Positions 10,421 through 63,161 of a stretch of 64,000 bases of DNA are shown here, one piece after another (within the stretch, counting starts at the first letter, position 1; each line of letters opens with the position of its first letter). The notes beneath the pieces are model-generated. The model was not told the DNA's origin. It saw only the letters and a list, made by a program, of their open reading frames with translations, and did not search any database. The position numbers were made by a program, and so were the translations under genes. The DNA comes from Phoronis australis (Eukaryota > Animalia > Phoronida), in the NCBI GenBank assembly GCA_002633005.1, contig NMRA01000589.1, positions 154,641-218,640 of the forward strand. Direction: 5' to 3'.

Positions 10421-10454
<34 letters not shown>

Positions 10455-36894: not shown

Positions 36895-38345
36895 CACGGG
36901 TACCACAGAGTCATACCCACGAGCATCGCATCCTACCCACGAGCATCGCATCCTACGCACGAACGACCTATGAACCTATGAGTCATGCACACGAACCCAA
37001 AAATCACGCATACGAATAAAAATCATGCGTACGTTGAAGGTTTTTTAAAGTCCTGTTTTGAAAAAGGCTTAAGATTTATCAGAGATGTGTTTACCTCTTA
37101 TGGCGATTTCGTTAGTTTAAACCATATGATAAATGACTTCAAAGTAAAAACCAACTTTGTAGAATATATTGGTAATGTTTCTGTTCTAAGAAGGTTTAAA
37201 AAAGGCTGTTTCAAAGTAAATTTAACAGTTTTAATGTCTATTCTCTTTGCATGCCTTTAGCAATTACTCACTTACTGAAAGATTTGAACGGTTGTAGACA
37301 TACTTGTTCAATCTTTAACGACGTTAAGAAATCTTTTAAGTCAGAGTGTAAATGGGAAATAGAGTTAGAAGATAGTTTAGATTGGAATAAAATATTCGCA
37401 TTGCCTTATGAAATTACAAAGGATCCCAACATTAGACGGTTCCAATTTAGAATATTACACAAAATACAACAAATATTATTTTAGTCAAAATCCGTGCTTG
37501 GGATTCTAATTTATGTTCCTTTTGTTACAACGCTCCAGAGACGCTGTCACATCTTTTTGGGAATGTCACCCTTTACAAGATTTTTGTAAGGAATTTAGGA
37601 AACTACTTCAATAGTGTCTCTTTCAGGTTCTCAACTGTCTCTCTTATCAAAGTGTTATTCTTGAACTTTATAAGACACGTGATTTTCTATTTAAAATTTT
37701 GCTTTTACTAGCTAAACAGTACATTTACAAGGAGAGATGTCACAAAAATATAGATTACCTAAGATTCACGGGTTTGTTACATACACATATGAATACTATA
37801 ATGCTGAAAAATTAATTCCATATAAAAGTTTTGCATAAGACAGCTTCTCTGCGAAATGGGAAAAAATTATTGTTCACGTTATCTCCATGTAGCAGTTGTT
37901 TACTTTATACGAGATATGAAAATGGTCTCTCTTGAGGTGTGCATGCGTGAATGAATGGATGTACTTGTTTGTTTGTTTGTTTTTGTACTTTTGTATCAAT
38001 GGTAATAAATACCTAAAAAGTCATGCGCACGAATCACGAAAATCATACACTCGTGCATCCGAATCATACGCACGAACCACCCGGCTAGCCAAACGATAGT
38101 GTTCATGCGTGTCACTTGATGCTCGTGTGTATGATTTTTGTGTTCTTATGTATGATTTTTGTGGTTCGTGCGTAGGATTTTTGTTCGTATGCGTGATTTT
38201 GTGGGTTCGTATGCATGATGCATATGTTCTTATGCATGATGCATAGGTTCGTATGCATGATTGATGGGTTCGTATGCATGATTCATAGGATCGTAGGTGG
38301 TTCGTGCGTAAGATGCAATGCTCGAGCGTATAATTACTATGGTAC
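36895..38345. mobile_element. Foldback/MITE with ~20-bp subrepeats and inverted arms, interrupted by the LINE fragment
   Basis: 36900-37033 is the diverged reverse complement of ~38150-38345 (cgagcatcgcatcctacgcacgaac...aaaatcacgcatacgaa). Confidence 0.65.
37034..38020 (+). mobile_element. 5'-truncated LINE 3' end (L1/Tx1-like, zf-RVT region)
   Basis: KGLRFIRDVF, KWEIEL...WNKIF...FQFRILHK, CSFCYNAPETLSHLF.WEC; ends with AATAAA and a short A-run. Confidence 0.8.
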
Positions 38346-41203
38346 ACCTGGAAACGTTAAGATTACCTGTTATTTTTAAAAGTTGCTTCTTAGCTCAAAC
38401 GTTTGCAATTAGGCGCATGCACTTAATTCGGAAGTAGACATAACTTCACACATAAGTGCATAAATTTAAGCACGTACGTATCAGTTAATGCGCCAACATT
38501 TGAACACCGATATGTCCAAATATGGACCTTGCTTGTGTTTTTTACTGAACATTCATTACGAATTAGTTTTTGAGCAAAATGATTGTACCTCGGGCTCAGG
38601 AGGCTGGTTCTCGAAGAGTCTGTTGTCTTTTGGTTAAAATCAACCTGCAGACTACTTTGCCATTTCCACGAAATCAGGCTAAGGCTAAGCCAGTAAATCT
38701 GTGTTCAACTTGAAGCTGAGATTCAAATCCGTAATCTTCCCGGGAATAGACTCAAAGACAAAGCCAAAAAAAATCAACTTTTGGGTATAGACTAATGGAG
38801 AAATAGACAATAGGCTTGGATTTCCAAGAGTCAATTGCAATCAAGAACTATGCACGCTCTTTGTCTTCGGTAACCCGTATAAGTCTGTCTCAATCTGGGA
38901 GACGGTTGAATGAAGAACTCTGAATGAATCGTTTTGTGGATTTCGAAGTGAACAGTACTTGTCTATGACTTTGAGGTTTCAAATTGTGGGACACTCATGT
39001 TAGAGGTCGATTCTTTTATAAACCAGCATTATGTTTCGTTAAAACAGTAGAGTTAGAAAATGGCAATTTTTCGAAAATTTTTGAATGACAAAACTGGCAA
39101 AGGTAGGACCGGCTGCAGTCTGGTTTTAAGTGACATTATCGACGAGAATTTCTTATTTGAGAACGGTGACAACGTGGATCGAAGTTGAAACTCTAGCAGG
39201 GCAGCCAAACACCCGGCTGGAAGATCTGAATCCCCCTTAGTATTTGGAAGTGTTTTTAAATCTATTTAATTCGATTAAGTCGTCGGCCTCGATTTCAGCG
39301 AATGTCTGGCAGACAACAGCGAGAATGGCGATTTGTAATAAAATCACAAAAACGCAACAGATTTTATTGTTTACCAGTTGTCTGGTTAAAGCTAACTTAA
39401 TAACCTCAAAAATCTTTCTCAATCAACAATTGCGTTTTTGGGTTGTTAGAACGACAATGTCTCACGAATGCACATCATCCTGCAAGCGAAAACAATCTGC
39501 ATAGTAAATGTGAGTTCAACTAGGGCATTAAACTTTTAAGTTAAAACCATGCACGTACAAACTTGGGTGTCACTCTCTGCTTCGCTATGCTGGTAATGAA
39601 TACTCTCTTTTCCACTCTACTGATCTACACAAAACAAAGCGTTCAGGTATATCGAAGATACCCAAAGGACTACATTGAGACATCTCGATACGGCTGAAAT
39701 TGTAATACACATCCCGGACATTTCTAAATTCTACTCTATTCACACTATTCTCAAACCTAGAGACTCAAGGGTCAGTGGAATTGGACGGGTAGTCCATCTC
39801 AGAAACTCCTTTAAGCCAAATATTTACATATTAATTTACATATTTTAATATGTAAGAATTTGGCTTAAAGGAGTTAAATGTTTTTGCATGTAAACTGAAA
39901 TAAAACGCACGGATAGTATGACAATATACATTGGCAAGACGTTTCGAGCGGTCATTTCTTTGGTCATTTTCAGGATTAAAACATCCTTAGAAGAACGAGC
40001 TCGGGTATGTTTTAAACTCATGCTAGTCAGTGACGAGCACGTTCCGGAAACGGAATGCATTAACTACCGATTCACACAGTGTCGCTCATTCGATAAAATT
40101 CGTCATTTTCCGTACGACGTTGTAACGTACACAGATAAGTCGCTATACATTAAGCAGCAATTAACACGCTACGTCACACGGAAATGGACGAACTGTGTAT
40201 CGAATGAGCGTATTCTTGTTGTAACGCCAAACACCGCAAAAGTACTTTGTGTAATTTCTCTATGAGCTGAACACGGCATCATTTTTGTTTATAAATCCAT
40301 CACATTCAAGCCGACATTTACTGTACAATATAGTCCACAAATTTGCCACTAGTTTCCCGACTGTACAAGATGTTCACCTTTTCTCACATCTTAGAAGTGG
40401 AAAAAGGAAGTTTGGCTTCACCTTTAGTGCAGTCTTCACCAGATTATAATTGCTGTTCTTATAGTTATACACCAATGCATTGAAAGAATTACAAAAACGC
40501 CTAACACGTTTGAACAAAGTTCGATTGATCGGAGAGTCAGTCATGATTTTGTAAAGTCATTACTCTGCGGAGTGAAAGGGTTTTTGTAAGGTATGACATA
40601 ACCACAAGCTGGTTCAAAACGACCAGTCACTAGATGTCAGTGCTTTCTTCATTCGCCACCGGATGGTACTTGATTTACTTTTTATAAAACTGTTATTTGC
40701 TTTCAGCTCATTAATTTCTAGACTTGCGCTTTGAAGAATCATAGAGAAAAATGGCGAAAATTCTCTTTTAATATTTTATACATTTAGACGATGGTTGACA
40801 CCAACGAATTTTTTATGCATCCACACAAACAGAATTGGTTGCATCACAGTCAATAAACATCCACATAAACGTATGTAGCTGCCTATCGCCATCAACTCCG
40901 TCTAGCGCCTGACGTCGACTTCTCCAACACTGTTAGTAGGGTTTTCACGAACACACAGGTGTTTTCCTTTTAACGACATCTCGGCGAATGCTGTCAATTT
41001 TCAGACGTTGCATCTCAATGGGTGCACGTCATTGTTGGGTCAACCAGCTAACAACATCTGATTGATTATTACAAAGGGAGTTACACTAGGTGGCCAAATT
41101 AAGACAACCTGTCTAACTGCATTACAAAAACAAATATAAGCACCTCTTACAGTAGGCCTACACCGTTTGCGCACATCGACGCTCAGCGTTACTTTTATTT
41201 TAG

Positions 41204-44200
41204 CCGTGCACAGTAATGAAGCAGACACCAGATGCTCAGAGGGCAAAGAAAAACTTCACTTCAATTTAGATGAAGACAGATGTGCTCAGCTCAAGTCCAT
41301 AGCGAAGGCACTAGGATGTCATGTCATCGACGTTTTCGTGGCGTTTGTCTACGCAATTCTCGTACGTTACGAAGGAGCCGAAAAGTCGTCTTCTGTCGAA
41401 GTTGGCTTTGCAACTCCAAATGAAGATCAAACCTCAGAGACCACTCTATTCCTCTCAGACGAATTCCTGCAATTCACGGACATTCAGTTACCTACTGACA
41501 CACAAGGGGATGTTGCTAGCTTAATACAGTCATTCAAGACCAGCTTGGGAAAAGTAGTCAACGCTGTCTCACCATACAAGACATCTTTGCCTAACATTCT
41601 TATTGGTTTTAACTTCCCACGGGAATTTGAGAAGCATGTGGCGCTAGACAGGTTTGCAGTGCGGCTACAAGCAAACAGGTTTAAGAACAAAGACACAAAC
41701 CTTGATACGTACAGATGCACGCTTGTATACAGTGGTGAAGGCAAAAGTGCTGGCCTCCTGAAAATGTTCGAAGGGCACCTCCTTACGCTTGTTCAAGAGG
41801 TCATTGTATCACGAGAAGTCGGCAAACAAATGAATCTCTTTAGCTTACCAATGCTAACTCCAAGCGAAAAGAGTTTTCAGGATCATTACAATGACACCAA
41901 CAGAAAGTATTCTGAAGGCAAATTACTGATGCATGAACTATTTGAGAAGAAGGTGAAGATGTCCCAGGACGCAGTTGCTGTTAAATGTGAAAACGAAAGT
42001 CTTACATATGCAGAGCTTGATCAACTCTCAGATAGTCTAGCTGAACAGATATTGTCAACGGCAGGCGACAACTTGAGCAATCGCGTGGTTGGCATAAGCG
42101 TTGACGCCTCAGTCCAAATGGTTGTTGGTCTCTATGCCATAATGAAGGCAGGATTGGCTTACGTACCTTTAGACCCAAGCTACCCCGAGGATCGTCTGAG
42201 CTATATGATTGAAAACTCCGAAGCGTCATTGATTCTTGCAAAGACAGACATGACAGACAAACTTAAGAAGTTTTCAGCGAACGTCTTGTGTTTAGATGAT
42301 ATGCTCAACCAAGTAGAATTTGACCCAAACCACAACGTCATCAAGAGAAATAAGAAGGTTGACGTCAGACCAGACGACTTAGCTTACATCATCTACACAT
42401 CAGGGTCAACGGGAAAACCCAAAGGGGTAATGATAAGCCACAGAAATGCAGTCAATACAATTCTGGACATAAACGACAGATACAACATTACTGCCAAAGA
42501 TAAGTTACTCCTTGTTGCATCTTTAAGTTTCGACTTATCGGTATATGACATATTTGGTATTTTAGCAGCTGGTGGGACCCTAGTCATCCCTGTCCCAGAA
42601 ATTCGCGGTGTCCCGGATCCCGCCTGTTGGATAAAAACTATGAAGCAAGAGAGCGTCACGTTCTGGGACTCTGCTCCAGCAGTATTAAGCCTTCTGGTAG
42701 AGTATCTTCACTCAGAGGGGGACGTCTTACCTCAATCATTACGTCTTGTAATACTAAGTGGTGATCGCATACCCCTAATGCTGCCTTCTCACTTGCAAGA
42801 AATGGTGCCAAACGTACAGGTTATGAGCCAGGGGGGAGCAACCGAAGGTTCTATTTGGTCAATTTACTACCCAGTCAAAACAGTTAACCCTGCTTGGACA
42901 ACCATACCCTACGGCATGCCATTGACAAATCAGAAGTATTATGTTTTAGATGAGTTCCTGAACCCTGCACCTACCTTAGTGACTGGCGAGCTTTACATCG
43001 GTGGTCTCGGAGTAGCAATGGGATACATGAATAACGAAAAAGTCACCAGCTACCGTTTCCTCCCTAGTCCATTTAAAGACGGCGGACGCATTTACAAAAC
43101 GGGAGACTTAGGTCGATTTCACCCTGAGGGGTACATCGAGTTCTGTGGTCGCATTGACAACCAAGTAAAGATCCGAGGATTTAGAGTCGAGCTATCGGAA
43201 ATTGAATCCGCCTTGATTAACCAAGACGGTGTGGACGATGCCCTAGTCATGAAGGTTCAGGAAAAGCTTGTTGCTTACGTCATACACGACCAACATGCTA
43301 AACTAAACGCGACAGACCTTCAAAAGCATATTAGCGAAACCCTGCCAACATACATGGTGCCAGCATACATAGTTATCATGGATTCATTTCCGGTTACCGT
43401 GAACGGTAAAGTTAACCGAAAAAAATTACCTCCCGCGGAATCAACGAGCCACAGAACCGAAGGCACAGGACCACCAGACGAGACTGCCCAATCATCAGAG
43501 CTAAAACTTTCAAACAACGAACAAGCCATCGCATCTGTTTGGTGCGAACTACTGAACACCGACATCCAGTCAATAAAACCAAGATCGTCCTTCTATGAAG
43601 TTGGTGGAGATTCCATATCCGCCATGACTATAGTGACGCAGTTGAAAAAGAAAGGCTTGAGCTTGACTGTCCAACAACTTCTAAGTCAACCAACTCTAGA
43701 ACAATTGGCATTAGTAGCCAAACCCATCAAGAAGCGAGTGGGAACAAAACAACACGAAAGAGAGGCGTCATCACCAAACGTGGAACTGACTCCAGCACAG
43801 GTTTGGTTCTTTGAGCAGGAGTTTGACAACATCAATTTCTGGAACCAGTCTTTTCTCATGATACCAAAAGTTAGATTGGAAAAAGAAAAATTGTCAAATG
43901 CTGTCCATGGTCTTGTCTCAAAACACGAAATGCTGAGGTGTAAATTCACCAAAGATCATCTTGGAAAATGGAAACAGACAATAGGAAATGAAGTTTCCTT
44001 TGTTTTTGAAAATGAAGATATATCAATAGACTTACTTAACACTAATATTGACAAGCTTAGACGGTCACTTGACATTTCCAAAGGTATCCTTATTGCAGTT
44101 GGGCTATTTGAAATCGATGGAGAACAGAAAATCTTTGTCACTGTTCACCATCTTGTAGTTGATTTGGTATCGTGGCGCATAATTCTAGAAGACATCGAGT

Positions 44201-47200
44201 TTCTTTACACAGACTCCGCAACACAAGACACGACACTTTCATTTCAGCGATGGTCTTCACATCTTCAACAAAAAGCCATAAACTGTCGTAATATTAATAT
44301 GGATGACAAGTTTTGTCTATTGCACTGCGACTTCGACAGCGGTATTGTCCCACGAGCTAGTTCCAGAAGCGTTCTCTCAACTAAGCTACCTCATGACATC
44401 ACTGCCCAACTGACGACCACTGCGAACGATGCTTTCAGAACCACTACCGTCGACCTCCTCTTGACGACACTGATGCTGTCGTACAACCACTGTCTTGGAA
44501 AATCGGCCCTCCACATTGACGTGGAAGCTCATGGGCGTGAACCCTTAGATGCAGACATAGACATATCTCGTACACTCGGCTGGTTCATGACAATGTTTCC
44601 TCTAAAGCTTGAAGTCACACGAGAGCAATCGACAGAGGCAACACTTGAAAGCACAATTAAACGTACAAAAGAAGCGATCAGAAAAATTCCGCACAAAGGA
44701 ATTACATTCTGGTTATTGAAATATTTGAAGTCGCTCGACAGCATCAGCTTTCCATCGTCAGACGTCTTGTTCAACTACTACGGGAGGTTTGACCAGATAC
44801 AAACAAGAAGTGATTTCTGGGACATGGATCCGAGTTATAGCTCTGGCGAAGATGAATTTGATGAAAGCGAAAAGCTAACTCATAAGCTAGTTGTTGAATG
44901 TTACATAAAAGATGAGCTTCTTCATCTTAAAATGTTCTACAGTACCGACTTCCACAAACCTAACACCATTCAAATTTGGCTACAGAAATGGAAAGAGTCG
45001 TTGCTAAAGACTGCTCGACACTGCGCACAAAATGGAGTGCAAGGATACACCCCATCAGACTTCCCGCTTTTGAGCCTGTCACAGGGACACTTGGACTATC
45101 TCTTGGCTACAAGATTAGCGCAGCTTGATCTGAAAGCCGAGCAGATTTCGGATATGTATCCCTGTACACCAATGCAAGAAGGTTTCTTGTTCAGTCTGTT
45201 ACAAGATCCGTCATCATATCTCATTCAACGGTCTTGCACGGTGAACGGTGATCTCGATCAAAATCAGCTTCACCAGTGTGTGGCAAAGGTCATCCAGCGA
45301 CATGATGCACTGAGGACAAGGTTTTTCGTCGATAGACTCAATGGGTGCATGCAAATTGTTCGAAAAACACATGACACAACCTGGGCAGTCGAAGATTTGT
45401 CAAATGTCACGGAGTCTCAGGCGGAGGAAAGAGAGCAGCAGTATTTGAGTCAGGATCGCAAAAGAGGATTCAGCATGTCTGAGTCAATGATTCGATTCTG
45501 TCTCTTTGTCCTGACAAAGAGTAAACATCGACTCATTATGACCGTGCACCACAGTTTGTTAGACGGTATGTCCTGTTCCATTTTGTTGCAAGAAGTTGTC
45601 CAAGCCTGCAACAATTCGGCTTTACCGGAAGCGCCAAAATACAGAGAGTTTGTCCAAGAGGTTATGGTCTCGAGGCAGAGTGCCTACACATCAGAGGGAT
45701 TTTGGAAGGAAGAGATGCAGGACCTCCCTTTCCTTGGGAACCTTCGCATGCTGTCCCCAGTCACACCTCTTCGAGGTCACGAAGTAATCCTGGAATCATT
45801 TGACGTAGTTCCAAACTTTTCAGCATACACTGAACAACACGAGATATCGCCTGCTGCGATACTGTGTGCTGCATGGGCGTTCATCATCAATAAGTACTCT
45901 TGTGATCCAAATGACGTCATATTTGGGCTCATAGTGTCTGGGCGAAGTTCATCAAATATCGACCAAATTAATAAGATGGTTGGTCTAACTATTAACACTC
46001 TCCCGATGCGGGTTAAAATTCAAGATCACCACGTCACCGAATGGGTAAAGTATGTACAACGAAAAATTGCATCCATTACAGCTCAAGAAAAATCGTTCAC
46101 GACTGATATTCAAAAGTGGTGTGGTCTAAACCCAGACGATAAGTTATTCGAAACCGCTATTTCTTACCAAACGGCCCACACAGAAGTTGACCAGACTCCA
46201 CACGGCATTAGTATAACTGATGTTTATGACCACGAATATACAGAATATCCCCTGACTTTAGACATTTTAAATACGGGTACGTCTTTTCAAGTGAAAGCGA
46301 TTTACGATACCAAAATTATTGACGTTCTAGCACTGAAACAGATGTTGATGCAGTGGAAACAAGTCATCGGTGCCATAGTTAAGTCCGGCAATAGCTATAA
46401 AGTGTGCGATCTAAATATGCTCTCTAACGAAGAAAACACGATCGTTCGAGAATTCAATACTCCAAATGAATTCGACATAACCTTTGGTCATGTGAAAGGT
46501 GTTCATCAGCTGTTTGAAGACAAGATGAAGTTTTTACCAGCCAGTCATAAAGCTATTGAATCAAGACTCGGTTCTCTGACTTATGAGGAAGTCAACAATG
46601 CCGCAAATTTCATTGCTTCTCAACTGCGTGTCCTTGGCGTCAAGCGGGAGAGCAAGGTCGGCTTACTGCTCGATCGCAGTGAATCCATGCCAGTGTGCAT
46701 GCTTGCAGTCTGGAAAGCAGGAGGAGCATTTGTTGCGATTGAAGACTCGCTTCCCAGCGACAGAATCAACTTCATCCTTCAAGACAGTGGATGCACAGTT
46801 GTTGTTAATGCTGCGAACATCCCGTTAGACGACATAGCAGGACGTTTGGCGCAAATCACAGTGAGCAGAAGCGATATTTGCGACTACGCTAGCCGTCATA
46901 GGGAAAACTTAGCGAGCTTAAACGCATGGCAAGACCTTGCATATGTGAGCTACACGTCAGGATCCACTGGACGGCCTAATGGGGTTTTAATTGAACACGG
47001 CGGGATAATTAATCTTTTGCTGTGTAAGCCTGGAGGACTGTTTCAAGTCTCGCAAAAGTCACGAGTCATGCAATTCTTTTCCGCTAGTTCTGACAAGGCT
47101 GTAGGTGAAATATTTGGAACACTTTGCCATGGCGGATGTCTTGTTATCGCCGATGAAAATTTCGCAGAAAGTCTTAAGTCTGTTGACACAGCTACACTTA

Positions 47201-50200
47201 TGCCATCAGGATTTGGAATGCTGGACTTTAACGATTATCCCAATCTTGAACTGATCGTTTCAACCAGCGAACCTTGTACCCAAGTGATGGTTAATTCTTG
47301 GGGGCGAGACCGAATTGTGGAAAATGCTTATGGGACAGCTGAGTGTAGCATTTTTACCAATGTTGGCCGCCTTTTGCCGCACAAAAGAATAACCGTAGGA
47401 AAGCCTTTGCCAAACACAAAGAGTTACGTCCTTGATAAAAATCTGAGCTTATTACCAGTGAACGTAACAGGACATCTTTACATCGGGGGAGTTGCCGTTG
47501 CACGAGGTTACCACAATAGACCAGATTTAACTGACAGTGCCTTCATTGAAAATCCTTTCGACAATGGATACTTCTATAAGACAGGCGATTTAGCTAGGTG
47601 GCTGGACACGGGAGAGATCGAAATAATTGGTCGTCAAGACAGCCAGGTACACTTACGAGGAAAAAGAATTGAGTTGATGGAAATAAGATCTGCACTCGAA
47701 CAACTCCCAGAGGTAAAACAAGCACACGTTGTATTGCAAGACAAGCAGTATATAATTGCTTACGTGGTAGCGTCAGCTGAATGCGACATCATTGATAGGC
47801 TCAAAAGGCAACTGCCTAGTTTCATGGTGCCAACATCAGTTATTTCCGTGGATTTTCTCCCGTTGACATCGGGAAATAAGATTGATGACGCTGCTCTTCC
47901 CAAGTTCACTCCCAAGCCATCTCATGATGACTCTCGAACGCCACTCAATGACTTGGAATTTCTGACTTTGAAAGCATACAAAGAAGTTATAGATCCCAAC
48001 TTCACTATGGACGACGATTTCTTCAGTCTCGGCGGTCATTCACTTCTCGCGATAACATTGAAAACTGTTTTGGTTGAGAGTCTTGGATATGAGATTTCTA
48101 TGACGGACATCATGCGATACACAACACCTGCAGAACTTGCAGATCAACTGGGTAGAAGGATGTTAGCTCCACGGAAACTCCAAACATCTACCAGACTTAT
48201 TCCAAAATCCTGTCCATCGGATGAAGCTGTTATTAAAGAACGAACTTCCTTTCATCAAGAACAAATGTGCTTGTTGTACGAAGTGATACAGGACAGCCCA
48301 GTGTACAACGTGTCGCTCATTTTGACTTTCCGTGGTCAGCTGAACGTTGAGTCTTTGAAACAGTCACTCATCGCGGTAACTCAAAACCATCACTCATTCA
48401 GAACAGCTTTTGAAATTGCAGAAGACAAATTCGTGCAAGTAGTGAGACCGGTGAACGAGACAGCATTTGACTTTGAATACCATGAAGGTGAGCACAGCGA
48501 AGCCGAAACGAGAGAGATCATCTACACAGAGGCATCCAAACCGTTTAACTTGTATAAGCTTCCACTAGCAAGATTCCGATTGGTGGAACTCAATGCACAA
48601 GAACACAGAATGCTACTCTTGATGCATCATGCAGTAACAGACGGTGCTTCACTGAAGATCATTGTGGATGAAATGTCCGAACGTTACCACTGTTTGTCAG
48701 AAAATCTTAATTATAACGTACCTCCCCAAACCCTGGAATATATTGACTACAGCATCTGGGAGAGAAGTGTCCTAGAGACCGAAACCTTTGAAGCTCAACT
48801 TTCTTTCTGGAAACGCCAGTTGGAATACGCTCCTTCGTTACTGGATTTACCGTTGGACAGACCCCGCCCAGCAGTTCCGTCATACGACGGTGCGTCGGTG
48901 TTCTTTTCTATTCCAGAAAGTGTGACAAACAANTGTTAGCTCCACGGAAACTCCAAACATCTACCAGACTAATTCCAAAATCCTGTCCATCGGATGAAGC
49001 TGTTATTAAAGAACGAACTTCTTTTCATCAAGAACAAATGTGCTTGTTATACGAAGTGATACAGGACAGCCCAGTGTACAACGTGTCGCTCATTTTGACT
49101 TTCCGTGGTCAGCTGAACGTTGAGTCTTTGAAACAATCACTCATCGCGGTAACTCAAAACCATCACTCATTCAGAACAGCTTTTGAAATTGCAGAAGACA
49201 AATTCGTGCAAGTAGTGAGACCGGTGAACGAGACAGCATTTGACTTTGAATACCATGAAGGTGAGCACAGCGAAGCTGAAGCGAGAGAGATCATCTACAC
49301 AGAGGCATCCAAACCGTTTAACTTGTATAAGCTTCCACTAGCAAGATTCCGATTGGTGGAACTCAATGCACAAGAACACAGAATGCTACTCTTGATGCAT
49401 CATGCAGTAACAGACGGTGCTTCACTGAAGATCATTGTGGATGAAATGTCCGAACGTTACCACTGTTTGTCAGAAAATCTTAATTATAACGTACCTCCCC
49501 AAACCCTGGAATATATTGACTACAGCATCTGGGAGAGAAGTGTCCTAGAGACCGAAACCTTTGAAGCTCAACTTTCTTTCTGGAAACGCCAGTTGGAATA
49601 CGCTCCTTCGTTACTGGATTTACCGTTGGACAGACCCCGCCCAGCAGTTCCGTCATACGACGGTGCGTCGGTGTTCTTTTCTATTCCAGAAAGTGTGACA
49701 AACAAGCTGATGAGCTTGACATATAAGTTCGGGGGAACGATGTTTACAGCACTTCTTACGGTATATGCACTCTTGATACGCATATACTGCCAAGCAGACG
49801 ACATTGCACTGGGAGCGTTTGTTTCCGGAAGACACAACCAAGGTACAGAGAATATCGTGGGTTATTTTGTGAACACCCTCCCTCTTAGAGTTAAGTTTAA
49901 CAAGAAACAAACGTTCAACGATATGCTCATTATGATTAAAGACCTTATGCTGGATGTTCTAAACAACCAGGACGTGCCTTTTCAAAAAATCTTAGAAGCA
50001 CTCAGCATCCCACGTGACACAGCCTACCACCCAATCATTCAAGCCGCTACGATCTTGCAAGAAGGACTAGCAAGCAGACAAGTTAGTAAAGGGTTGAACT
50101 TAAACGTTGACAGTTTCGAACAGTTCACAGCAAAATTTGATTTAAACTTGGAGTATTTACGACATCCGAATGGCCAGATTTCAGGGCAATTTGTTTACAA

Positions 50201-50548
50201 TACTGACGTCTTTAACAAGTCCACTATTGAGCGGATGACTGATCACCTACTCTATTTGTTCGATTTGGTTACAAGAGACTGTGACACTCCAATGAACCAT
50301 CTGTGCATGCTACCTCCCAAAGATTTGGAGCGCATAATGTCTTTCAACACGACTGGAGACTGTACGGACGTTCGCATCCACCGACAGTTTGAAATGAGGG
50401 CAGACGAGTCGCCAGAGGAGATCGCGGTCGAAGAAAAAAGGCGCCATATAACTTATGGTGGACTGAACAAAGCCGCAAATGACTTAGCACGTCAGCTGCG
50501 ATCACTTGAAGTGACCTTTGATGTACCAGTGGCCTTGCTGGGAGAAAG
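41204..50548 (+). CDS. NRPS giant exon: half-C, A1 (~41930-43440), T1 (Ser 43612), E1 (~43780-45070), C2 (~45150-46430), A2 (~46490-47910), T2 (Ser 48040), C3, start of A3
   Basis: ORFs 41167-48939 and 49038-50552; acceptor ttttag at 41203; donor AG|GTAAG at 50549. Confidence 0.9.
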
Positions 50549-53500
50549 GTAAGAAATCATTTATTTTGGTAAAATTTAACGTCCCAGTGACTTACAGGAG
50601 TTTTCCGCAGATAAGCCCACCCGATGAAACGCTCATGGGCGTTTATTTGGTGTTACAACTGGTATCAAGTGTCTAGATAGTGGGCCGTTTATTCGGAAGA
50701 TTTCCTCTTAAGAGCCCACAATGAGGTCTGGAGGTGCACATTAATCTTCTTGTCCCACTGGGCAGATATTGCAAAAATTCATGGGCTGTTACACAATTAA
50801 CGTTGTTAACCCGCATTCACAACAATCCTTTTAGGACTACCAATCCACCCAGAAAGGCTGTTTCACTTACAAAAAATACGTACAGCGCTTCCTTTCGTCA
50901 TTTGCGTAGCCGAAACTATGACTTTCCATTTACACGCCCCCTTTTCCGAATAAACGCCAGGGCGTTTATTTGGCGTTACTAAAACGCCTGAAATTTTTCA
51001 CTTTCCGAATACACCCCATGGCTTATCCCCGGAAATATCGGTATTATGGAAAATCTTGTTTTAACATTGGTAAAACATCACCACTCGGATGCTTGTGACA
51101 TGTGGCAAAACTCTTCGCTTTTTCATGTTTTAGGACGTCCTTGCCAAATGCCAACTCGAACTAATCACTATGGAAATATATACATCAGTTACCTACTTTT
51201 TGTTTTAGAAACCTTGAGCTCATCGCTGCTATCCTGGGTACATTAAAAGCAGACGGAGCCTTTGTTTGCATAGACGTATCCTTGCCCCAAAATCGCATCG
51301 ACTACATGCTCGAAGATTCGGAATGTCACGTTGTCGTAACCTCGCAACGCATCCTTAATTCCGGAATCCTAAAGCATTTTGGGGGACATGTCATATGCCT
51401 AGACATAGAGAAATGCACAACAAAATACCCTATTCGTCTCAGCTCTGATAAAGACAGAGAAGTGCAAGCCCAGAGCAAAGTGACGTCCAGTAATATGGCA
51501 TACATAGTATACACATCGGGGACAACCGGGAAGCCGAAGGGTGTTATGGTAACACACAAAGGCGTAGAAAATCTTATCCCAAAAATGAACAAGGCGCTAG
51601 GTGTAAGGAAGGGAAGGAAAATAACACAGTTCTTCAACATAATGTTTGATGGCGCGTATCAAGAAATATTCATGGCGCTCTCCAGCGGAGCTACTCTTGT
51701 ACTTCGTGAGACGGACTACCGCAACACGTTGAAGTCGGTGGACTTTTCTATGATGACGCCAACTGTACTTGCATCTTTGGATCCAAGAGACTTCCCAAAC
51801 CTAAAAACTGTGGCTGTTCTTGGCGAAATATTGCCCGAATCTGTGGTCGCGTGCTGGGAGGATCACGTAGACTTATTTAATGAATATGGCCCGTGCGAGG
51901 TGACAATCAACTGTACTATTGGTAAGGTGAATAACAGATCGCAAGTGACAGCTGGAAAGCCAATAGAAAATTGCACGACCTTTGTGCTTGGAGACGACAT
52001 GAACCTGGTTCCAATTGGCGTGAAAGGAACAATTTTCATTAGCGGACTCGGTGTTGCAAGAGGATACCTCAACAGACCGGACTTGACCCTTCAGAAATTT
52101 GTAGATAATCCATTCGGTGAGGGTAAACTCTACAACTCCGGAGACGTTGGATGTTGGACCGACGACGGTGAACTCGTGGTCAATGGACGAAAAGACAGAC
52201 AGGTAAAGTTCAAACGGTGATCATAAGATGGGCTGTAATTTTTTCACAATGATGTCTTGCTCGCAATCCGATCTTTCCCAAGAAGTTTCGAGATATTCAT
52301 TGTCAGTTTGCCGTATGACTGTTGATAGGACAATAAACGGATAGGACGTGAATTTTAACGAGCTTTTATGATACTATGCAACAAATAAAACTGGTATGTT
52401 ACATAACTTACGTTCAATGTGTATAACTGAGACATAGCTTCAATACTACGACAAGAATTTGTCATGCTGCTTTGCATTCTTTATTATTCATTCCCGTGTC
52501 AACTCAATCAAAAATTGATAAACCCATGGGTTTCAATGGTCGTTCTAGGTCAAATTGCGAGGATTTCGAGTAGAGCTCGGGGAAGTGGAACACGCGCTTG
52601 CTACGTTGGAGGGCATTGGGAACGCTGCTGTGTTGATGAAAAAGGACATTTTAGTAGGATATGTCACGCCCGATATCGGTAAGTGTGTCAATCCGTTTAC
52701 TTAGACCGGTTTCCGGTATGAAATTGATCCTAACTTTACCTAGATGAAGATTGATTTCTGGGTTATGGAAAAGCTGGCAGTAAATTATTGTTTGCGAACG
52801 TGCTCGGCACATAACGTGACTGACACACTGTGACAATCCAAATTATCGAGTCTGATCCCAAGCAATAATGAACTGTGAGTTCTTCTACAACCCAGGAATT
52901 TTGTATCCGTCAGTGTCATAAACTAAAAGTTGTTTACGGAAGGCGAGTTAATAGCCGCTGTAAGAAGCCACTGCTAATGGTCACCTCGATGTCAACAAAT
53001 TTTTAATTGAAACTAAATGAGCCTTATTTCGCTATCTGAGTAAAATCATTTTTGTTTTATATCTCGCTGAAGCTGCAGTGTGTCTACAATCTCTTCTCAA
53101 AATCTTGTCTTCACAGGCACGACGAAAGCCCAAGAGCTTAAACAGAAACTCGAAGAAACTCTTCCGCGGTATATGATACCCACAGTGATCGTTCCTCTGG
53201 CAAAATTCCCAATGTCAACAGCCGAAAAGGTAAATTATCGCGCATTGCCCGAACCGAACTTAGTGCAACAGGAAACTGCCACAACAAAAGAAAAAATGCT
53301 CATACAAATTTGGAGCGAAGTTCTTGGAATCAGCCCATCAAAGATCAAACCAACAGATTCCTTCTTTTATTTGGGTGGAGATTCAATTTCTGCCATGAAA
53401 GTTTTCACTTTGGCAAGAAAACAAGACTTACGATTCACAGTACAACAAATTTTCCAAACGCGGAATTTGTCTCAACTCGCAGCTGTAGCCAAATTTGAAA

Positions 53501-56500
53501 AGTCATCTATAGAGGCAGATCAAGTCGAGATTTCTGGACTCATACCTTTGACACCAATTCAAGAGTGGTTCATAGGCTTGGACATGATGAACCTCAACCA
53601 TTTCAACCAGTCTGCTCTCCTCAAGCCTCATAACATACTTGATGCTCAAGCACTTCAGAAAAGCATTGACAAACTTGTGTCGCATCATGACATGCTTAGA
53701 GTAAAGTTCCATTTCAGAGACGACGGTACAGTCACGCAAGAAATCAAATCTTCAAATGATTGCATAAAACCAAAACTATTACACAAAGCTGTATCGCAAG
53801 ACCAGGTGAATGACACACTGCACCAAATTCAATCATCTTTGAGCATAACAGATGGCCCTGTTGCAGCTTTCTGCCTGCTAGACGTGAAGAGTCAAGGGCA
53901 GTTGCTCTTCATAACTGTTCATCACGTCGCAATTGACTTGGTTTCATGGCAAATCCTTCTTGAAGACCTTGAGCTGTTGTACTTAGGCAAGAAGTTACAA
54001 CCTAAAACAACGTCGTTCAAAGCATGGTCAGAGGGTCTCTCGAATGAGTATCGTTTAACTATGTCAACAGATACTTGGCCCAAATGGCAGAATACAGCAT
54101 CAAAAACTTTTGATCACTTCCTGTACGGGAACAAGATTAACGAGACTGGGGAAAACCGCACACTGAAACTGGAAAGTATTTCACTTCATGCTGAAACAAC
54201 GGGCAAACTGCTTTCTCTTCAGGGAACCCAGGGGAGCGATTTAACTTCCGTTAACGACGTGTTATTGACTGCCTTAATTGTAGCATATCACAGATGTACT
54301 GCGATGACATCTCTTGCTGTAGAACAAGAATGGTTTGGAAGGGAACCTTGGAATGAGAAATATGATGTGTCCAGAACAGTAGGTTGGTTTACCGTCATGT
54401 ACCCTGTTACAATGACAATTGACAAAAATGGAGAATTGGAAGATCATCTTGAAAAGACAAAATCAATTCTGCGACGAGTTCCACAAGGCGGGCTTCCATT
54501 CGGTGTCAATAAATACCTGAATAAAGACGAAGACTACAGGTTCCACCAAAGTTGTGACGTTCTCTTCAACTACCACGGTAGTGCAACACAATTTTCCCAA
54601 GACCTGACGCTTTGGGACGTATGCATGGATGGGGAATTCGTCTTCACAAACCGAGGCAAAGATGAGAAGTTATCCCATAGTCTTGTAATTGAGTGTTCCG
54701 TGCAAGACGAGTGTCTGAAGTCAATGTTCATTTATATGCACGATCAGAGAAGTCCGTTCATAAAAGAATTGGCTTCAACCTGGCTCGAAATCGTCAATTC
54801 CATTATGTCAACTTGCAAAGTAATGCAGGTTGATAAAGGCATAGATCCATCCAATGATACCCTTCCTGCGCTTAATACAACTCAAATCCTAACAGACAAC
54901 GACACCGAAGCCATTTACGAATGTACCCCACTTCAAGAAGGTTTCATTCTTTCACTGCTTCAAGATAAATCTTCATATCTTGTCCAAATGGCAATGGATA
55001 TTGAAGGAAAGTTGGATGTACCACGGTTCATAGACGCTTGGAATGTAGTCATTCGCCGCCACCAGTCTCTAAGAACCTCGTTTGCAATCGAAACAAAGGA
55101 CCACATGTTGAGGCAAAACGTCAGAAGACAAGCAAACATTCAGTGGACAAAAGATCACTGGACGGATCCACTGCAGCAAGAGAACGAGTATGTGATCAAA
55201 GACAGAAACGTAGGATTTGAAATGAAGGAGGTAATGATGCGCTTTGCGTTAATGAAACAACCTGATGACACATACAGGTTTATCTGGACGACCCATCACT
55301 CCCTGATTGATGGTTGGTCAACTCAGCTCGTGTTAAGAGAGGTTCTCTTAGCCTATCATCAACAGGAACTGCCTCCTCCACCACCTCCATTCCAAACTTT
55401 TGTCGAGTATTGTAAATCGCGAAATACTTCAGCCGCAAAGACTTTCTGGGGTGAATTCTTTGAAAACTTACATTCAAAGTTTTTAATTACCGGAAAGGAA
55501 ACCGTAAGACCCAAAGAAGTCTCATCGTCAAATGTGAAGAATTTCACCAAACAACTTGAAGTACGCACTGATAACCTCTGGCGTTTTGCACGTGAAAACA
55601 GTCTAACAATTTCCAGTGTCGTTTTTGGTGCATGGTCTATCGTGTTAGATAGATTTTGTAGCAATGGAGGGAACGATTGTGTGTTCGGCGTGGTACTGGC
55701 TTCCAGGAGTGCAGAAGTTGAAGGAATAGAAGACATGGTAGGTCTCTTGATTAACACATTGCCACTTCGAATCACATTTCCAACGAGTGCAGGTATTTCG
55801 ATGCTTGACTGGTTGCATTCAGTACAGTCCCGCCAAAGCAGTATAATGGAGTACGACTACTGCAACTTAGCAGATGTCGTACGATGGAGTGGCCTACCAA
55901 GAAACCAGAATATCATGGATTCTTTGGTAATTTTTGAAAATTATCCTCCGATGCACGACGTGGAAAACGGCGAAATAGCGCTCACTAATCTCCAAGCATA
56001 CGAGAAAGTACAGTTTCCCATAACAATAGAGGTTGCCGCGGACTCCGACTATGTTAGTGTCACGTGCATGCATGATACCAGCCGGATAAGCGATGATCTA
56101 GCTAGCGAGATGCTAGATTACATGAACAGTGCAATCAAGGAGCTGCTCAACTATGACACAGAGAAACCGATAGTTGAAATGGACATCGTCAAGGCGAGAC
56201 CTGGGAGAGATGCCAAAGGAGTACGTTTGGACATGTGGAACGGGGTGGGATCCACAAGCCAACTTAAATGTTATATCAGGGATCAAAAGGGACGCATGAC
56301 GCCACCAGGTATTGCCGGAAAACTAGAGTTCAGCACTAGTAATGGCGAGGCATGTCAAACGAACGTTGTGGCTCTGCTACATAACAACGGCGATATAAGC
56401 GTTTTATGCAAGAAAGGCAATTACGAACTTGAGGGTGCAGTTAAGTATGTTACGTTTGAAACTGAAGAGGGCGCGATAGCACTTACTCAGAAACCAGTTT

Positions 56501-59500
56501 CTTTTGAGGTTTTGAAAGAATTTCAAAAAAAGCACCTCAAGTGTATTCCAGTTCACAGCATTGAGTTTGTTCACGAAGAACTCATCAATCTCGTAACAGA
56601 TGAGGTAACGATCGATCAAGTGAGCACAATACAGGAAACACAGAGAGAAAGATTCGTTGACGAGTTCCAGATGACTTATTCCCAGAAACTGCTAAGAGAT
56701 ATTTGGAGCCAACTTTTAGAAGTACCGCGGGATGACATCAAACTTGACCACTCGTTCTTTGACTTAGGTGGGACATCTATAAAGGCAATTAGCATGACTT
56801 CTTTGGCAGAAAAGAAAGGGCTGCATTTGAATTTAAATGACATCTTGGAGTATCAAACTCTCAGAGGCATTTCAGCTGCTGCTAAGACACAGACAGGTGA
56901 GTTTTTCAAGCAAAATATTTCGTGTTTTCGAACAAAATTTAAAATTAGTATGTCTTTTAATAAGTATGCTAAAGAAAACTAACATTTCAGGTATTTTACA
57001 GGCATAAGTTTTTCATAATTGTTAGAATTTATTCAGGAATAACAAACCATTTTTTCTGCAAGAAATTAAACGGCCAACATAATGTGCCAGAGCCTTGGTA
57101 GGCGAAACAGTTGGCCAACTCTGAGAGTAATTACAGTTTCGTTACTCTCAGGCCATCGTAGTTCGTGTCCACCAGAAACTTTATCAGAAGCATTTCAACC
57201 GATTCTTGGAAGTTTTAGGTAGCTACTTCAGGTTCCTAAATCTCTACAGTCATTTATACCAAACCAATTAAAACAAATGAACGTGAGAGGGGACTGTCCA
57301 CGAAATGCAGGCGCTAGTAACAGACTTCGGGGTTATATGTGTTTGAATTCCACGAGGACCAGGCAAGTCTGGTAGCAGAAAATTAATGGAAATGTACACT
57401 GCACGCTCTTAAAAACCATTTAGAAAATTCTACATTTTCTACACTATTTCGTTGAACTGATATCTTCCGCCAAAAGTATTGCAAAGGCATAATTATTTAA
57501 TTTTGGTCCTTCAGTTTATCTGTCTTTTTAGAATTTCCAGCTTCGGTGATATCAAAACTTGACATTTCGTGATGAGGTCATTGCTTACAAAGTCGCTTGT
57601 TTCCTTGTTTTTAAAGTGACATGCTTGCTTCGCGTGGCACAAGTATGACCGACTGAAGTATTTTTACTTATTAACAAATTTTAACTTCTTACAGACAATG
57701 CAAACGACATTCTGGTGCGTCTGAATGAAGGAGAGAAGGACCGTATACCAATCGTTTGCGTCCACGCAAGCGATGGTGGCACGTCATCCTACGCGTACCT
57801 AGCAGGTAAATATTTCGCGTGTCCATTGTTGTTATTACATGTACTGCACGTGCAGTGCAGGTGACTGCGTACGAGTCCTCTAACTACAGTAGTAACCAAA
57901 CTGAATTGGAAAAAATACTGTTTGCCATCATGACGGCTACTTACCATCAAAAATGATTACTTACCACCAAGGCGGCAAACTTCTAATTACAGAATGGCTT
58001 ATAAGCCACCATATTAACTTTCCTGTTAACTGCTCTCCATTCTCGGTCACAAATGAGAGAAAATTTTTCTAACGACGAATTTGACTTCGGCCCAGCCATC
58101 ATGACGGGGAATCCCGGGTCATTTTTTCTGAAACACTTCTGGCTCGCGCTGTGCATAGATCTCTTCGTCGGAGGTATAAGCGCAAGAGGATTAAAGAAAC
58201 TTTATCGGCATTATTACAGGGAAACTCATTTTGGGAATTGTTGTTCGGTGGGATAAACTTCTTAATTTTATTACTTTTGACCAGCTTCCCGTCCAGTAAC
58301 GCTAGGACGTTGCTAAAAACCGACTTCGCGAGATTACGTGACATGATATTGTCGTGTATTGAGAACATGTGACTTTGGCTTGATTTTAGCTAGGTCCCAG
58401 CGTTACTGAACGCACGCCAGAACTATCGAAGAACATCTATCGTCTTTTTGTGATTTTATTACAAATTGCCAATTTTCGACATTTCCTGCCAGGAATTCGC
58501 CGAAACCAAGGCATGTACGCTTAACAACTCTGATATTTATCGAGGGGCCTTAGCTCTGTTAGCAGACCATAGAACTGTGATGGGGGGGTTGTATGCAGGT
58601 TTGATTGATCGCCGAGAGTGATCTCACAAAATTATTTTTCTCGCCAATAATGTCCCTTCATACCGCCAACCAGACCTTGCTTCACTCAAAGCGAAAAAAC
58701 GAACGAATACGCGAATACTACTACATGTATGGAACGGCCGGCCACAAATTCGTGAAACTGTGAAAAACGGAACACAGCGAATGATATGCACCACCCAACC
58801 AGTAAATAAAACAAGCCCTCGGTGAGGGTTTGCAGAAAACGACGTTTTTACAGAACCTGAGCTTATACCAGGTTCGCTAGTAGGCTCACAGCTGTTGTTT
58901 ATGCAAAAATGAGCTGAACTCCACCAGCCTGTATACATAGGTGTTGGTTCATTCTACATATAGTAACAGAAAAGCAGGCGGCAAATCTCATACTTTAGTA
59001 GCAAAATAAGAGCGAAATCACGAGAAGCTGAGTTCATAACCAACGCATTCAAAGCCCTTAGAAAGGATACACAGAAGGTTGTTGGATGTTTTATGTTAGC
59101 TAGACCGCCATCCGACGGTAATACTCGGAACTAGAGAAAATATTAGATAAACACTATGTCGAGCAGCTACAGAACGGAACACGTTTCACGCACTTTCCAC
59201 CAGAAAAAAGGCACACGCAGTTCTGTTGTACAAAAGATTTGAAATTATCCATTGGTCATGAAAGAGCATTCAACCAAACACTCGCCTATACTCTTGAGGA
59301 AACTTAATGACGTACTATCACGTGTTCATTTTGCAGGCAACTTAAACCGACATCCATTATACGCATTCCGCTTAAAAGAGGATACACCATTCGAGTCGAT
59401 TGAACAACTTTCTGCTTTGTACGTGGAAAGAATGGTCTCACTCGACTTCTTCGCCAACGTGCAACCATACTTACTGGTGGGGTATTCAACAGGAGGCGCA

Positions 59501-59977
59501 GTGGCGTTCGAGATGGCGCTTCAGCTTGAGCTAAAGCAATACCCACCCGCCAGACTGGTTCTGCTCGACGGCACACCAGAGTTTATGCGGAGAACTTATC
59601 ACGGCATCAGTAGTAAAAGCGAAGACGAAATTGTCGATGTAAAGAATTTCTTGACAAAAACGTGGGACGAGAAAGGACTGGACAAATCTGACCTTCAGAG
59701 AGCGTTGACCAACTTCAACAACACCGTCTCTCAGTACGCTAGCTACTCGCCGACTGAATTGTACCACGGCAGCACCGTTCTTGTTCAGCCAGCTAGCAAT
59801 GAAAATAATGAGTTGTTGATGGCGGCTATCTCGCAGATGCCAAGTGAAGATTATGGGCTACAGGCGCTGTGTACCCAACCTGTGAAGATCGTAGTGGTGG
59901 AGGGAGATCACTACAGCATGATGCGAGATGCAGACGGAGTGATATCTCATACAGTTGTGGAAGGACTATCTCAGTAG
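41204..59977 (+). CDS. Multimodular non-ribosomal peptide synthetase, C(half)-A-T-E-C-A-T-C-A-T-E-C-A(remnant)-T-TE, >=4,740 aa after removing the 772-bp assembly overlap
   Basis: Exons 41204-50548, 51209-52202, 52549-52678, 53117-56896, 57695-57805, 59337-59977 join in frame with GT-AG introns. A-domain P-loops YTSGSTGKPKG, YTSGSTGRPNG, YTSGTTGKPKG. Carrier motifs GGDS, GGHS, GGDS, GGTS. C-domain HHxxxDG x3. E-domain HHxxxDLVSW, ExxGRE and RTxGWF x2. TE motifs GYSTG and GDH. The start codon is on an unlocated upstream exon. Confidence 0.93.
48161..49705 (+). repeat. 772-bp direct duplication separated by one N (probable haplotype overlap at a contig join)
   Basis: 48161-48932 and 48934-49705 differ by about six substitutions, mostly synonymous; N at 48933. 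Confidence 0.9.
50593..51043. mobile_element. Tc1/mariner-like MITE inside an NRPS intron
   Basis: TA-flanked diverged TIRs TACAGGAGTTTTCCGCAGATAAGCC / GGCTTATCCCCGGAAATATCGGTA; internal subrepeats gcgtttatttgg and ttccgaata. Confidence 0.5.
51209..52202 (+). CDS. NRPS exon: core of adenylation domain A3
   Basis: AYIVYTSGTTGKPKGV, FDGA, NEYGPCE, GVARGYLNRP, YNSGD, GRKDRQ; donor CAG|GTAAAG. Confidence 0.9.
52549..52678 (+). CDS. NRPS exon: A3 A8 motif and Asub start
   Basis: Translates VKLRGFRVELGEVEHALATLEGIGNAAVLMKKDILVGYVTPDI, completing GRKDRQ|VKLRGFRVELGEVE; this frame is not in the ORF track. Confidence 0.9.
53117..56896 (+). CDS. NRPS exon: end of A3, T3 (Ser 53383), E2, C4, remnant A, T4 (Ser 56776)
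   Basis: LPRYMIP, LGGDSISAM, LTPIQEWF, HHVAIDLVSW, SRTVGWFTVMYP, WTTHHSLIDGWS, FFDLGGTSI; donor G|GTGAGT. Confidence 0.9.
57695..57805 (+). CDS. NRPS exon: N-terminal part of thioesterase
   Basis: Translates ILVRLNEGEKDRIPIVCVHASDGGTSSYAYLA, a typical TE start (P..CVH..xG...Y..LA); phase 1 at both ends. Confidence 0.85.
58280..58420 (-). mobile_element. Repeat family A copy inside the last NRPS intron
   Basis: gacttcgcgagattacgtga...ctaggtcccagcgttactgaacgcacgccag is the reverse complement of the copies at ~15843 and ~22960. Confidence 0.75.
59337..59977 (+). CDS. NRPS terminal exon: thioesterase catalytic part
   Basis: [32 protein letters not shown]; acceptor ttgcag; stop TAG. Confidence 0.9.
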
Positions 59978-62768: not shown

Positions 62769-63161
62769 ATGAATACGCGTATTCTTCTCGTCTGTATCTT
62801 GGGAGGAAGTTTTCTGGTGGCCGAAGCGCGCCCGTTGATGCCACGAGATACATCTCGTAAACCATCAGATGCATCCCAGCCTTCCAAACCTACTAAGAAA
62901 GTAGACGAAGGTACATGTAGACAACCTAAAGCGCAATTGTGATAATCACAATTTAATGAAACGAAAGATTCTTATTTAATCCAAGATTTTTCACTGAATA
63001 CTTCACAGTGTAAAGTCATTCGAGATCCCCGTCGATGAATTATTTAACTGTTTCTTCTGTCTTTTTCAGTCATAATTTCCTTCGTTCTGTTTGCTGCAAT
63101 TAGCGGTTCAGTGACATGCTTTGCTTGGATCATAAGCGACTTGTTCCTACCCCAATGGTAG
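62769..63161 (+). CDS. Small single-pass membrane protein, 77 aa (signal peptide + short polar ectodomain + TM)
   Basis: Exons 62769-62910 and 63070-63161 join in frame: MNTRILLVCILGGSFLVAEA-RPLMPRDTSRKPSDASQPSKPTKKVDE-VIISFVLFAAISGSVTCFAWIISDLFLPQW*. An upstream acceptor lies at 62722. Confidence 0.55.

Follow-up and report, generated by a model that had tools for sequence, protein, structure and literature searches.

Does an animal genome encode a single assembly line for a peptide in which D and L residues alternate? This question is raised by a nonribosomal peptide synthetase (NRPS) gene of the phoronid Phoronis australis, located in a stretch of 64,000 nucleotides of contig NMRA01000589.1 (positions 154,641 to 218,640; assembly GCA_002633005.1), which is hereafter called the window and in whose coordinates all positions are given. 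The gene occupies positions 41203..59977 of the forward strand, as do all of its domains described below, and it is predicted to encode 4,742 amino acids (aa), with five GT-AG introns and a first in-frame ATG at 41764. An earlier reading of this DNA (the original prediction) described an internally consistent D-L-D programme in the gene and proposed that it makes a D-amino-acid peptide. Our analyses indicate that the NRPS is likely still functional and that its predicted product is likely D-X1-L-X2-D-X3-L-X4, where X1 would be a Cys-like residue. The finding is an expressed and conserved gene of this kind in an animal setting; the stereochemical consistency of its domains is by itself textbook.

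NRPSs of animals are known in several phyla (PMC10531068), with examples that include bdelloid NRPSs (PMC11258130) and a mollusc NRPS-like pathway, and few of their products are known (PMC11869996). In the literature found, we have come across nothing on the stereochemistry of this gene or on an alternating assembly line with two epimerization domains in an animal. NRPS clusters of a phoronid, echinoderms and molluscs are given in Table S4 of PMC10531068, where scaffolds are their only coordinates, and the locus in the window may be among them.

Domain Organization and Stereochemical Logic

If a duplicated segment (described below) is counted only once, four long open reading frames (ORFs) and two short exons give a frame of 4,742 codons (14.2 kb) that no stop codon interrupts. 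Three of the introns interrupt module 3 and two interrupt the thioesterase (TE), and this intron model is trusted because its junctions fall inside motifs of an adenylation (A) domain and of the TE and restore them. The encoded protein consists of a remnant of the C-terminal lobe of a condensation (C) domain, A1, the carrier domain T1, the epimerization domain E1, C2, A2, T2, C3, A3, T3, E2, C4, a stretch of about 157 aa that holds no complete A domain, T4 and TE (in short, A-T-E-C-A-T-C-A-T-E-C-T-TE). The gene thus extends beyond position 56180, at which the original prediction had ended, to include T4 with its GGTSI motif and then the TE that ends at 59977.

All of the motifs quoted in the original prediction are found in frame and in the place that it gave them. 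The domain E1 (43774..45102) has near-canonical motifs, viz. HHLVVD (44146), EAHGRE (44524), RTLGWF (44569) and FNYYG (44770), and the corresponding motifs of E2 (53533..54864) are HHVAID (53920), EWFGRE in place of E[GSA]HGRE (54328), RTVGWF (54373) and FNYHG (54565). Both domains keep the catalytic residues, namely the second His of the HHxxxD motif and the first Glu of ExxGRE, as had been claimed. These are equivalent to His743 and Glu882 of TycA, each of which is required for epimerase activity (PMC8905534). Solved E domains are matched by E1 and E2 at 136–178 bits and other PDB chains at no more than 36 bits; the top 10 of the 11 PDB matches of E1 are E-bearing chains, and E1 scores 109.7 bits against TIGR01720 (cut-off 74.2). 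The characteristics of an NRPS epimerization domain (the second His of HHxxxD, the Glu of EGHGRE, RTxGWF, FNY and a position between T and C) are all present in E1, and E2 shares the catalytic His and Glu, the E fold and the T-E-C position but lacks the canonical E[GSA]HGR motif. A fold model of T3-E2 (pLDDT 77.6, from 16 sequences; TM 0.80 to the carrier–E didomains of TycA and GrsA) shows an epimerase fold and says nothing on activity. By subtype E1 and E2 are epimerase domains, and their activity is predicted.

The three complete C domains were assigned by the same kinds of evidence. C2 (45136..46437; CTPMQEG at 45163 and HHSLLDG at 45547) and C4 (54895..56184; CTPLQEG at 54922 and an intact HHSLIDG at 55294) have McyB, TycB, SrfA-C, PvdL and BacC as their best PDB matches (114–213 bits), and TycC is matched at only 78 and 64 bits. 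We take McyB-C1, TycB-C1 and SrfA-C to be C domains that stand behind an E domain, and the PDB titles for PvdL and BacC name E-C pairs. For C3 (48999..50330; LPLDRPRP at 49620, GYFVNTLPLR at 49860 and QDVPF at 49968) the best matches are Txo2, Txo1, 5u89 and TycC (162–216 bits), all of which are presumably of the LCL type. Hidden Markov models (HMMs) were also built from the C-family domains of 174 reference proteins, labelled by architecture alone and cross-validated in two folds. When held out, 232/232 E domains, 230/233 C domains that follow an E domain (post-E) and 95/108 that follow a T domain (post-T) were put in the right class, and the five window domains (E1, E2, C2, C3 and C4) all came out as the original prediction had them. 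The margin of the post-E over the post-T model in the two folds is +33/+40 bits for C2, +69/+70 bits for C4 and −101/−95 bits for C3.

In a phylogenetic tree of these domains, C2 and C4 belong to a D-clade of 135 domains (support 0.996), 77 of which are named as fungal and none as bacterial, and a second tree places them with 16 fungal domains (support 77.5). Hence, the proposal that C2 and C4 are DCL-type holds in that PDB matches, held-out HMMs and trees all give the post-E class and not LCL, although the two domains are not nested among the bacterial DCL domains. Their placement is compatible with the fungal CT-DCL subtype (He et al., 2023), and that they take a D donor is a prediction which the sequence does not settle. 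C3 lies behind T2, which has a GGHS motif, with no E domain between them, and it branches within a clade of 48 domains that are all post-T (support 0.976), in agreement with its PDB matches and HMM class and with the LCL type first suggested for it; the gene therefore keeps two types of C domain at the expected places.

The carrier domains follow the same logic. GGDSI is present in both carriers that precede E domains, T1 (43495..43737; motif at 43603) and T3 (53272..53505; 53374), and GGHSL in T2 (47935..48162; 48031), which precedes C3, exactly as reported earlier. Among the references a GGDS carrier precedes 229 of 231 E domains and a GGHS carrier none of the 231, and before C domains without an E domain GGDS occurs in 56 and GGHS in 23 of 108 cases. 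The rules that had been called standard (GGDSI before E and a DCL domain after it) are thus borne out by the reference proteins, the second of them by the 230 of 233 post-E C domains given above. A pairing of LGGHSL with LCL and of LGGDSI with DCL domains, with exceptions, has also been described (PMC10212144).

Adenylation Domains, Last Module and Thioesterase

The domain A1 (41908..43452) carries the specificity code DLYDISQIWK, and its best match among PDB chains with a single A domain is BmdB (411 bits), whose A domain we take to be Cys-specific. Code positions were anchored on motifs, with the GrsA numbering. The sequence DLYN[LM]SLIWK is a code for Cys (PMC12283262), to which the window A1 agrees at 7 of 10 positions and the A1 of its orthologue (DLYNLSLIWK; see below) at 10 of 10, and both A1 domains fall in the same clade. 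The codes of A2 (46480..47916; DKGTVTAIFK) and of A3 (50358..53259, in four exons separated by introns at 50549-51208, 52203-52548 and 52679-53116; DGQMALEINK, in which position 331 was read off the sequence at an alignment gap) do not allow the substrate to be predicted, and nothing close to them occurs among the codes of 468 other A domains. The A10 Lys is present in all three A domains.

The last module has no complete A domain. The approximately 157 aa in its place (56185..56655) are probably an eroded A-domain fragment, for which the hhalign score is 25.2 (probability 7.6%) against a best score of 22.7 in 40 shuffles, a weak signal, and this stretch is almost absent from the orthologue. 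It is followed by T4 (56662..56895; GGTSI, and GGTSL in the orthologue), which has kept its Ser, as have the other three T domains. The TE (57715..59974) is divided between exons 57695-57805 and 59337-59977, with introns at 56897-57694 and 57806-59336, and it contains the motifs GYSTGG, LLDG and GDHY with the catalytic triad present. Its closest PDB chains are the thioesterases of mammalian fatty acid synthases (FAS).

Conservation, Selection and Expression

An orthologue of the gene was identified in an ENA protein of 4,451 aa (P0056), encoded on a contig of 2.4 Mb, which is 36% identical over 4,178 aligned residues. A second protein (P0175) differs from it by 20 residues, as expected of two alleles. 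Both have the same string of 12 domains as the window gene, ATCCATCATCCT, which is common to no other of the 174 proteins, and their carriers read GGDS/GGHS/GGDS/GGTS. The last module of P0056 is likewise without an A domain, and the active site of C4 and the Ser of T4 are kept in both orthologues. In the trees each window C domain, as well as A1, pairs with its positional counterpart in the orthologue. The P0056 frame stops about 35 residues past T4, slightly into the start of the window TE, and an intron may account for this end. No further orthologue was found among 54 long proteins, 113 shorter proteins and 75 metagenome loci; among the matches listed, P0056 alone appears in the best 120 of 799, and none in the best 150 of 628 TE matches. 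These searches were limited by word or by rank, so that absence from them is weak evidence.

The listed allelic differences from position 41764 onward comprise 15 silent and 4 replacing changes (pN/pS 0.075; binomial p 2e-7), which is a sign of purifying selection on the alleles. RNA reads cover the ORF of the first exon in two of three runs (X5 and X6) at approximately 1–5x, almost all of them on one strand. The suggestion that the stereochemical logic has been maintained is thus supported by an orthologue of the same layout and by purifying selection, and weakened by the rare substitutions found in E2, A2 and C2.

Proposed Biosynthesis and Alternative Explanations

In the reading that we prefer, A1 would load a small, Cys-like residue onto T1, E1 would equilibrate this residue, and C2 would join its D form to the L residue on T2. 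C3 (LCL) would then extend the chain onto T3, E2 would invert residue 3, and C4 would couple the resulting tripeptide to an L residue, the fourth, on T4. One of the A domains upstream, with A3 the likeliest, would fill T4, in the way that has been proposed for the last module of the fusahexin synthetase (PMC10967133; bioRxiv 10.64898/2026.07.13.738209), where the last A module is reused, and the TE would free the peptide through hydrolysis or cyclisation. E-C-T units without an A domain occur in 7 other reference proteins, two of which end in T-TE. The proteins P0081 and P0103 end in E-C-T-TE without a last A domain; the carrier at this place in P0081 is also GGTS, and the last A domain of P0103 lies in the same Cys-like clade as A1. 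For the complete reading, i.e., a working NRPS that makes D-X1-L-X2-D-X3-L-X4 from a Cys-like X1 loaded by A1, with T4 served by a reused A domain and release by the TE, we estimate the chances to be about even. That D residues occupy both positions 1 and 3 is fairly probable, and for position 1 a D residue has a high chance under every explanation considered here except decay of the gene.

A number of observations weaken the original prediction or weigh against this reading. The D-L-D consistency is the default for NRPSs that have E domains and is no evidence of activity, and the nemamides (PMC8363725) and the E-bearing ACV synthetases (PMC10531068) are precedents for non-ribosomal peptides with D residues made by animals. 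The splice junctions of the five introns are predicted from sequence. The count of polymorphisms consists of the listed differences and the six of the duplicated segment, and 70 more differences lie outside it. The RNA depth is low, run X7 contains no reads over the ORF, and these values come from about one-fifth of each run with library orientation not established. A2 has 7 departures at 48 conserved columns, a number reached by 3% of 463 references, and C2 has 6 at 25, reached by 2% of 233 references; the HMM margin of C2 stands at the 5th percentile of post-E domains (median +118 bits), below the 95th percentile of post-T domains (+44 bits). The codes of A2 and A3 differ from those of the orthologue, and therefore the products of the two genes differ, and module 4, as predicted, cannot choose its own residue.

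Other such points concern E2. It is without the His of the ExHGRE motif, which 481 of 486 distinct reference E domains retain, the W and F of its EWFGRE, a sequence unique among the 486, occur in none of them at those positions, and its score of 51.7 bits against TIGR01720 is under the cut-off of 74.2. E2 also has the longer branch of the two window E domains, and the orthologue has the canonical EGHGRE. The family may therefore follow a D-L-D programme in which the E2 of the window gene is dead or weak, so that the product would be D-L-L(-L) or a mixture and a C4 of the fungal type would take an L donor. Such a donor would agree with the fact that 52 of the 131 other members of the C2/C4 clade stand behind a T domain without an E domain, and therefore membership in this clade is no proof of D selectivity; only 66% of fungal CT-DCL domains sit behind an E domain (PMC10212144). 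We nevertheless regard a failed E2 as unlikely, with perhaps one chance in a handful, since it retains the catalytic His, Asp, Glu and Arg together with RTxGWF and FNY, its departures at conserved columns (3 of 37) are equalled by 13% of the references, its fold model is E-like, and none of the literature found assigns a catalytic role to the His that EWFGRE replaces. The end of the protein allows a different doubt, viz. that only a D-L-D tripeptide is made and that C4-T4-TE serves as a chirality gate and release unit (through cyclisation or transfer to a free amine) that adds no fourth residue. The lack of a complete A4 in either orthologue and the odd GGTS motif of T4 are in line with this proposal, as is the suggestion that CT-DCL domains are able to end synthesis (PMC10212144). 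The Ser of T4 and the triad of the TE, however, are both kept, and release of the product by C4 would make them superfluous; moreover, modules without an A domain that are loaded by reuse have precedent, which leaves this proposal rather improbable.

A separate adenylating enzyme, with its gene at another place in the genome, could load T4 in trans, and the fourth residue would then be unrelated to X1-X3. Such loading has a parallel in nemamide synthesis, where unlinked enzymes are used and one of them loads an NRPS carrier directly (PMC8363725), and no tailoring gene is found among the long ORFs of the window. We consider it very unlikely, as reuse in cis requires no additional gene and no candidate enzyme was identified (the 64-kb window was covered and no genome-wide search was made). 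Slighter still is the chance that the gene is decaying or repurposed and that the D-L-D pattern is an inherited fossil. The N-terminal C lobe and A4 are indeed eroded, A2, C2 and E2 are atypical, and RNA is scarce, but against this stand the length of the stop-free frame, the low pN/pS, the presence of the A10 Lys in each of the three A domains, of the Ser in each of the four T domains and of the TE triad, and the conservation of the orthologue over its 4,178 aligned residues.

Evolutionary Origin and Host

As judged from the trees, most of the NRPS domains are allied to those of fungal NRPSs. E1/E2 and C2/C4 group with fungal domains, A2/A3 group with domains of chytrids, mucoromycetes, zoopagomycetes and basidiomycetes (support 0.95–0.996), and C3 is sister to the C domain of Basidiobolus ORX93212.1 (0.97). 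As they were taken from re-rooted trees, these supports are approximate, and the sequences sampled had been collected by similarity to the query. A1 is the sole window domain in a bacterial clade, and a scan of prokaryotic genomes for it gave 64 pattern matches, of which none was a relative. A purely bacterial origin of the E domains, C2/C4 and A2/A3 is rejected by the trees. The best matches of the TE are animal FAS thioesterases, and a tree puts it beside a Basidiobolus TE with low support (0.56); the TE may derive from an animal FAS.

The place of the E domains, C2/C4 and A2/A3 among fungi is unstable, being sister to all 16 fungi in one tree and with chytrid and basidiomycete sequences in another, and with this placement and a biased sample the trees do not distinguish between transfer from a fungus, a donor common to both and inheritance from a remote ancestor. 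It is a tentative and rather doubtful proposal that the gene and its orthologue represent an old, hitherto unrecognized family of animal NRPSs with its nearest allies in early-diverging fungi, which may go back to the animal–fungus ancestor and not to bacteria. This family would be an animal counterpart of the WARP synthetases and would make peptides of alternating D and L residues that begin with Cys, by means of dedicated epimerases and one A domain used again.

The evidence on an animal host comprises the five GT-AG introns that restore the frame, the RNA reads, and the multi-exon CUB-like gene and fragments of long interspersed nuclear elements (LINEs) nearby. The presence of this CUB-like membrane-protein gene and of the LINE fragments makes it likely that the NRPS gene is animal-encoded.

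Comparison with Known Systems

The fungal WARP synthetases (viz. fusahexin NRPS4, fungisporin HcpA and apiosporin NRPS4) resemble the window gene in that an E domain occurs in every other module, giving alternating D and L residues, and the string A-T-E-C-A-T-C-A-T-E-C is common to reference fungal proteins and the window gene. In fungal NRPS4 a final carrier without an A domain is thought to be filled by reuse, as proposed here for T4. The window gene differs from them in its terminal TE in place of C-T-C, in its true LCL domain C3, in the bacterial Cys-clade affinity of A1, in the grouping of A2/A3 with early-diverging fungi and basidiomycetes outside the ascomycete clades, and in its host, which is likely an animal. 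WARP synthetases, whose products are cyclic and hydrophobic, belong to an ascomycete cluster with an upstream ABC transporter and a terminal C domain; neither this setting nor this terminal domain is found here, and no ABC transporter is present among the window ORFs of at least 150 aa that were scanned. Hence, the window gene is predicted to work like a fungal WARP synthetase, but it fails the cluster and terminal-domain features of that family.

The Basidiobolus meristosporus protein ORX93212.1 (P0214; C-A-T-TE) has, besides its C domain, an A domain in the clade of A2/A3 (0.89) and a TE that is weakly sister to that of the window, and unlike the window gene it is a single module without an E domain. 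It has been listed as a candidate for horizontal transfer from delta-proteobacteria (PMC7466969). Its accession number adjoins that of ORX93211.1, the proposed basidiosin cyclopeptide gene (PMC7466969), an adjacency of numbers only.

Two animal systems are also among the closest known. The ACV synthetases of springtails and of Plectus sambesii are, like the window gene, animal-encoded, with three A domains, E and TE domains and a predicted D residue (PMC10531068). Their architecture, A-T-C-A-T-C-A-T-E-TE, is not that of the window gene, however, as they have one terminal E domain directly before the TE (LLD-ACV predicted), whereas the window gene has a C domain behind both of its E domains and also an additional C-T. 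The nemamide system of Caenorhabditis elegans (PKS-1/NRPS-1) likewise yields an animal non-ribosomal peptide with D residues, uses one A domain twice and releases its product by a TE (PMC8363725). The likeness is one of features alone; unlike the window gene it is a hybrid with a polyketide synthase (PKS), and although its product is the one among the few known from animal NRPSs for which D residues are proven, it has no identified epimerase (PMC8363725). The bacterial systems for tyrocidine, gramicidin S, surfactin and pyoverdine (PvdL) share with the window gene the domain rules and catalytic residues of their E, DCL and LCL domains and supply its best matches among solved structures, but identity to them is 25–37%, and the window gene has spliceosomal introns.

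With two E domains in one expressed gene, it can be tested directly whether animals themselves make alternating D/L peptides, and it bears on whether some of the marine invertebrate peptides credited to symbionts are made by the host. The EWFGRE sequence is a natural variant with which the role of a near-invariant His can be probed, and the conserved C-T-TE end without an A domain similarly probes non-linear loading. The fungal affinity of most of the domains puts the usual assumption of a bacterial donor in question.

Start of the Gene, Assembly and Neighbouring Sequence

The remnant of a C-domain C-terminal lobe at 41203..41907, which is without the catalytic N-lobe, was recognized by hhalign (95% to an LCL profile), scores 10 bits in a separate comparison in which shuffled sequences reach at most 2.3, and is 21% identical to the N-terminus of P0056. 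It may be partly untranslated. Positions 41203-41763 provide 208 open codons upstream of the first ATG, RNA reads span the putative acceptor at 41203, and 4 of 4 listed allelic differences in this segment are replacing, compared with 4 of 19 downstream. The remnant may now be a 5' untranslated region, or translation may begin at a non-AUG codon or in an unseen exon.

The duplicated segment at the start of C3 (48161..49705) consists of two copies of 772 bp (48161-48932 and 48934-49705) around a single N at 48933. They have 6 differences, 5 of which are silent, and one DNA contig passes from T2 into the 772-bp stretch with the letters of the second copy at both listed sites. The duplicate likely represents two alleles placed in tandem by the assembler; a true tandem duplication of C3 was rejected on the few, mostly silent differences and on this contig.

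Upstream of the NRPS gene, positions 1400-22330 of the forward strand hold the multi-exon CUB-like gene. Its CUB-like repeats are numerous, it is likely to encode a transmembrane segment, and its last exon contains a cytoplasmic tail of low complexity. The one match to Pfam CUB lies just below the cut-off, and an Atlas search of the flanking ORF gave only scores below 0.9. A gap of 565 N within 19617-20439 is flanked by a 129-bp duplicate (94% alike), an assembly overlap. The broken LINE reverse-transcriptase-like fragments (33730-34560 and 36980-37850) were seen by eye in short frames, and long inverted repeats or palindromes at 27996-28300, 11326-11681 and 10419-10582 are possibly small DNA transposons. 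At 62761-62940 of the forward strand, 2.8 kb past the NRPS gene, a short ORF with a signal-peptide-like start probably represents exon 1 of a gene for a secreted protein.

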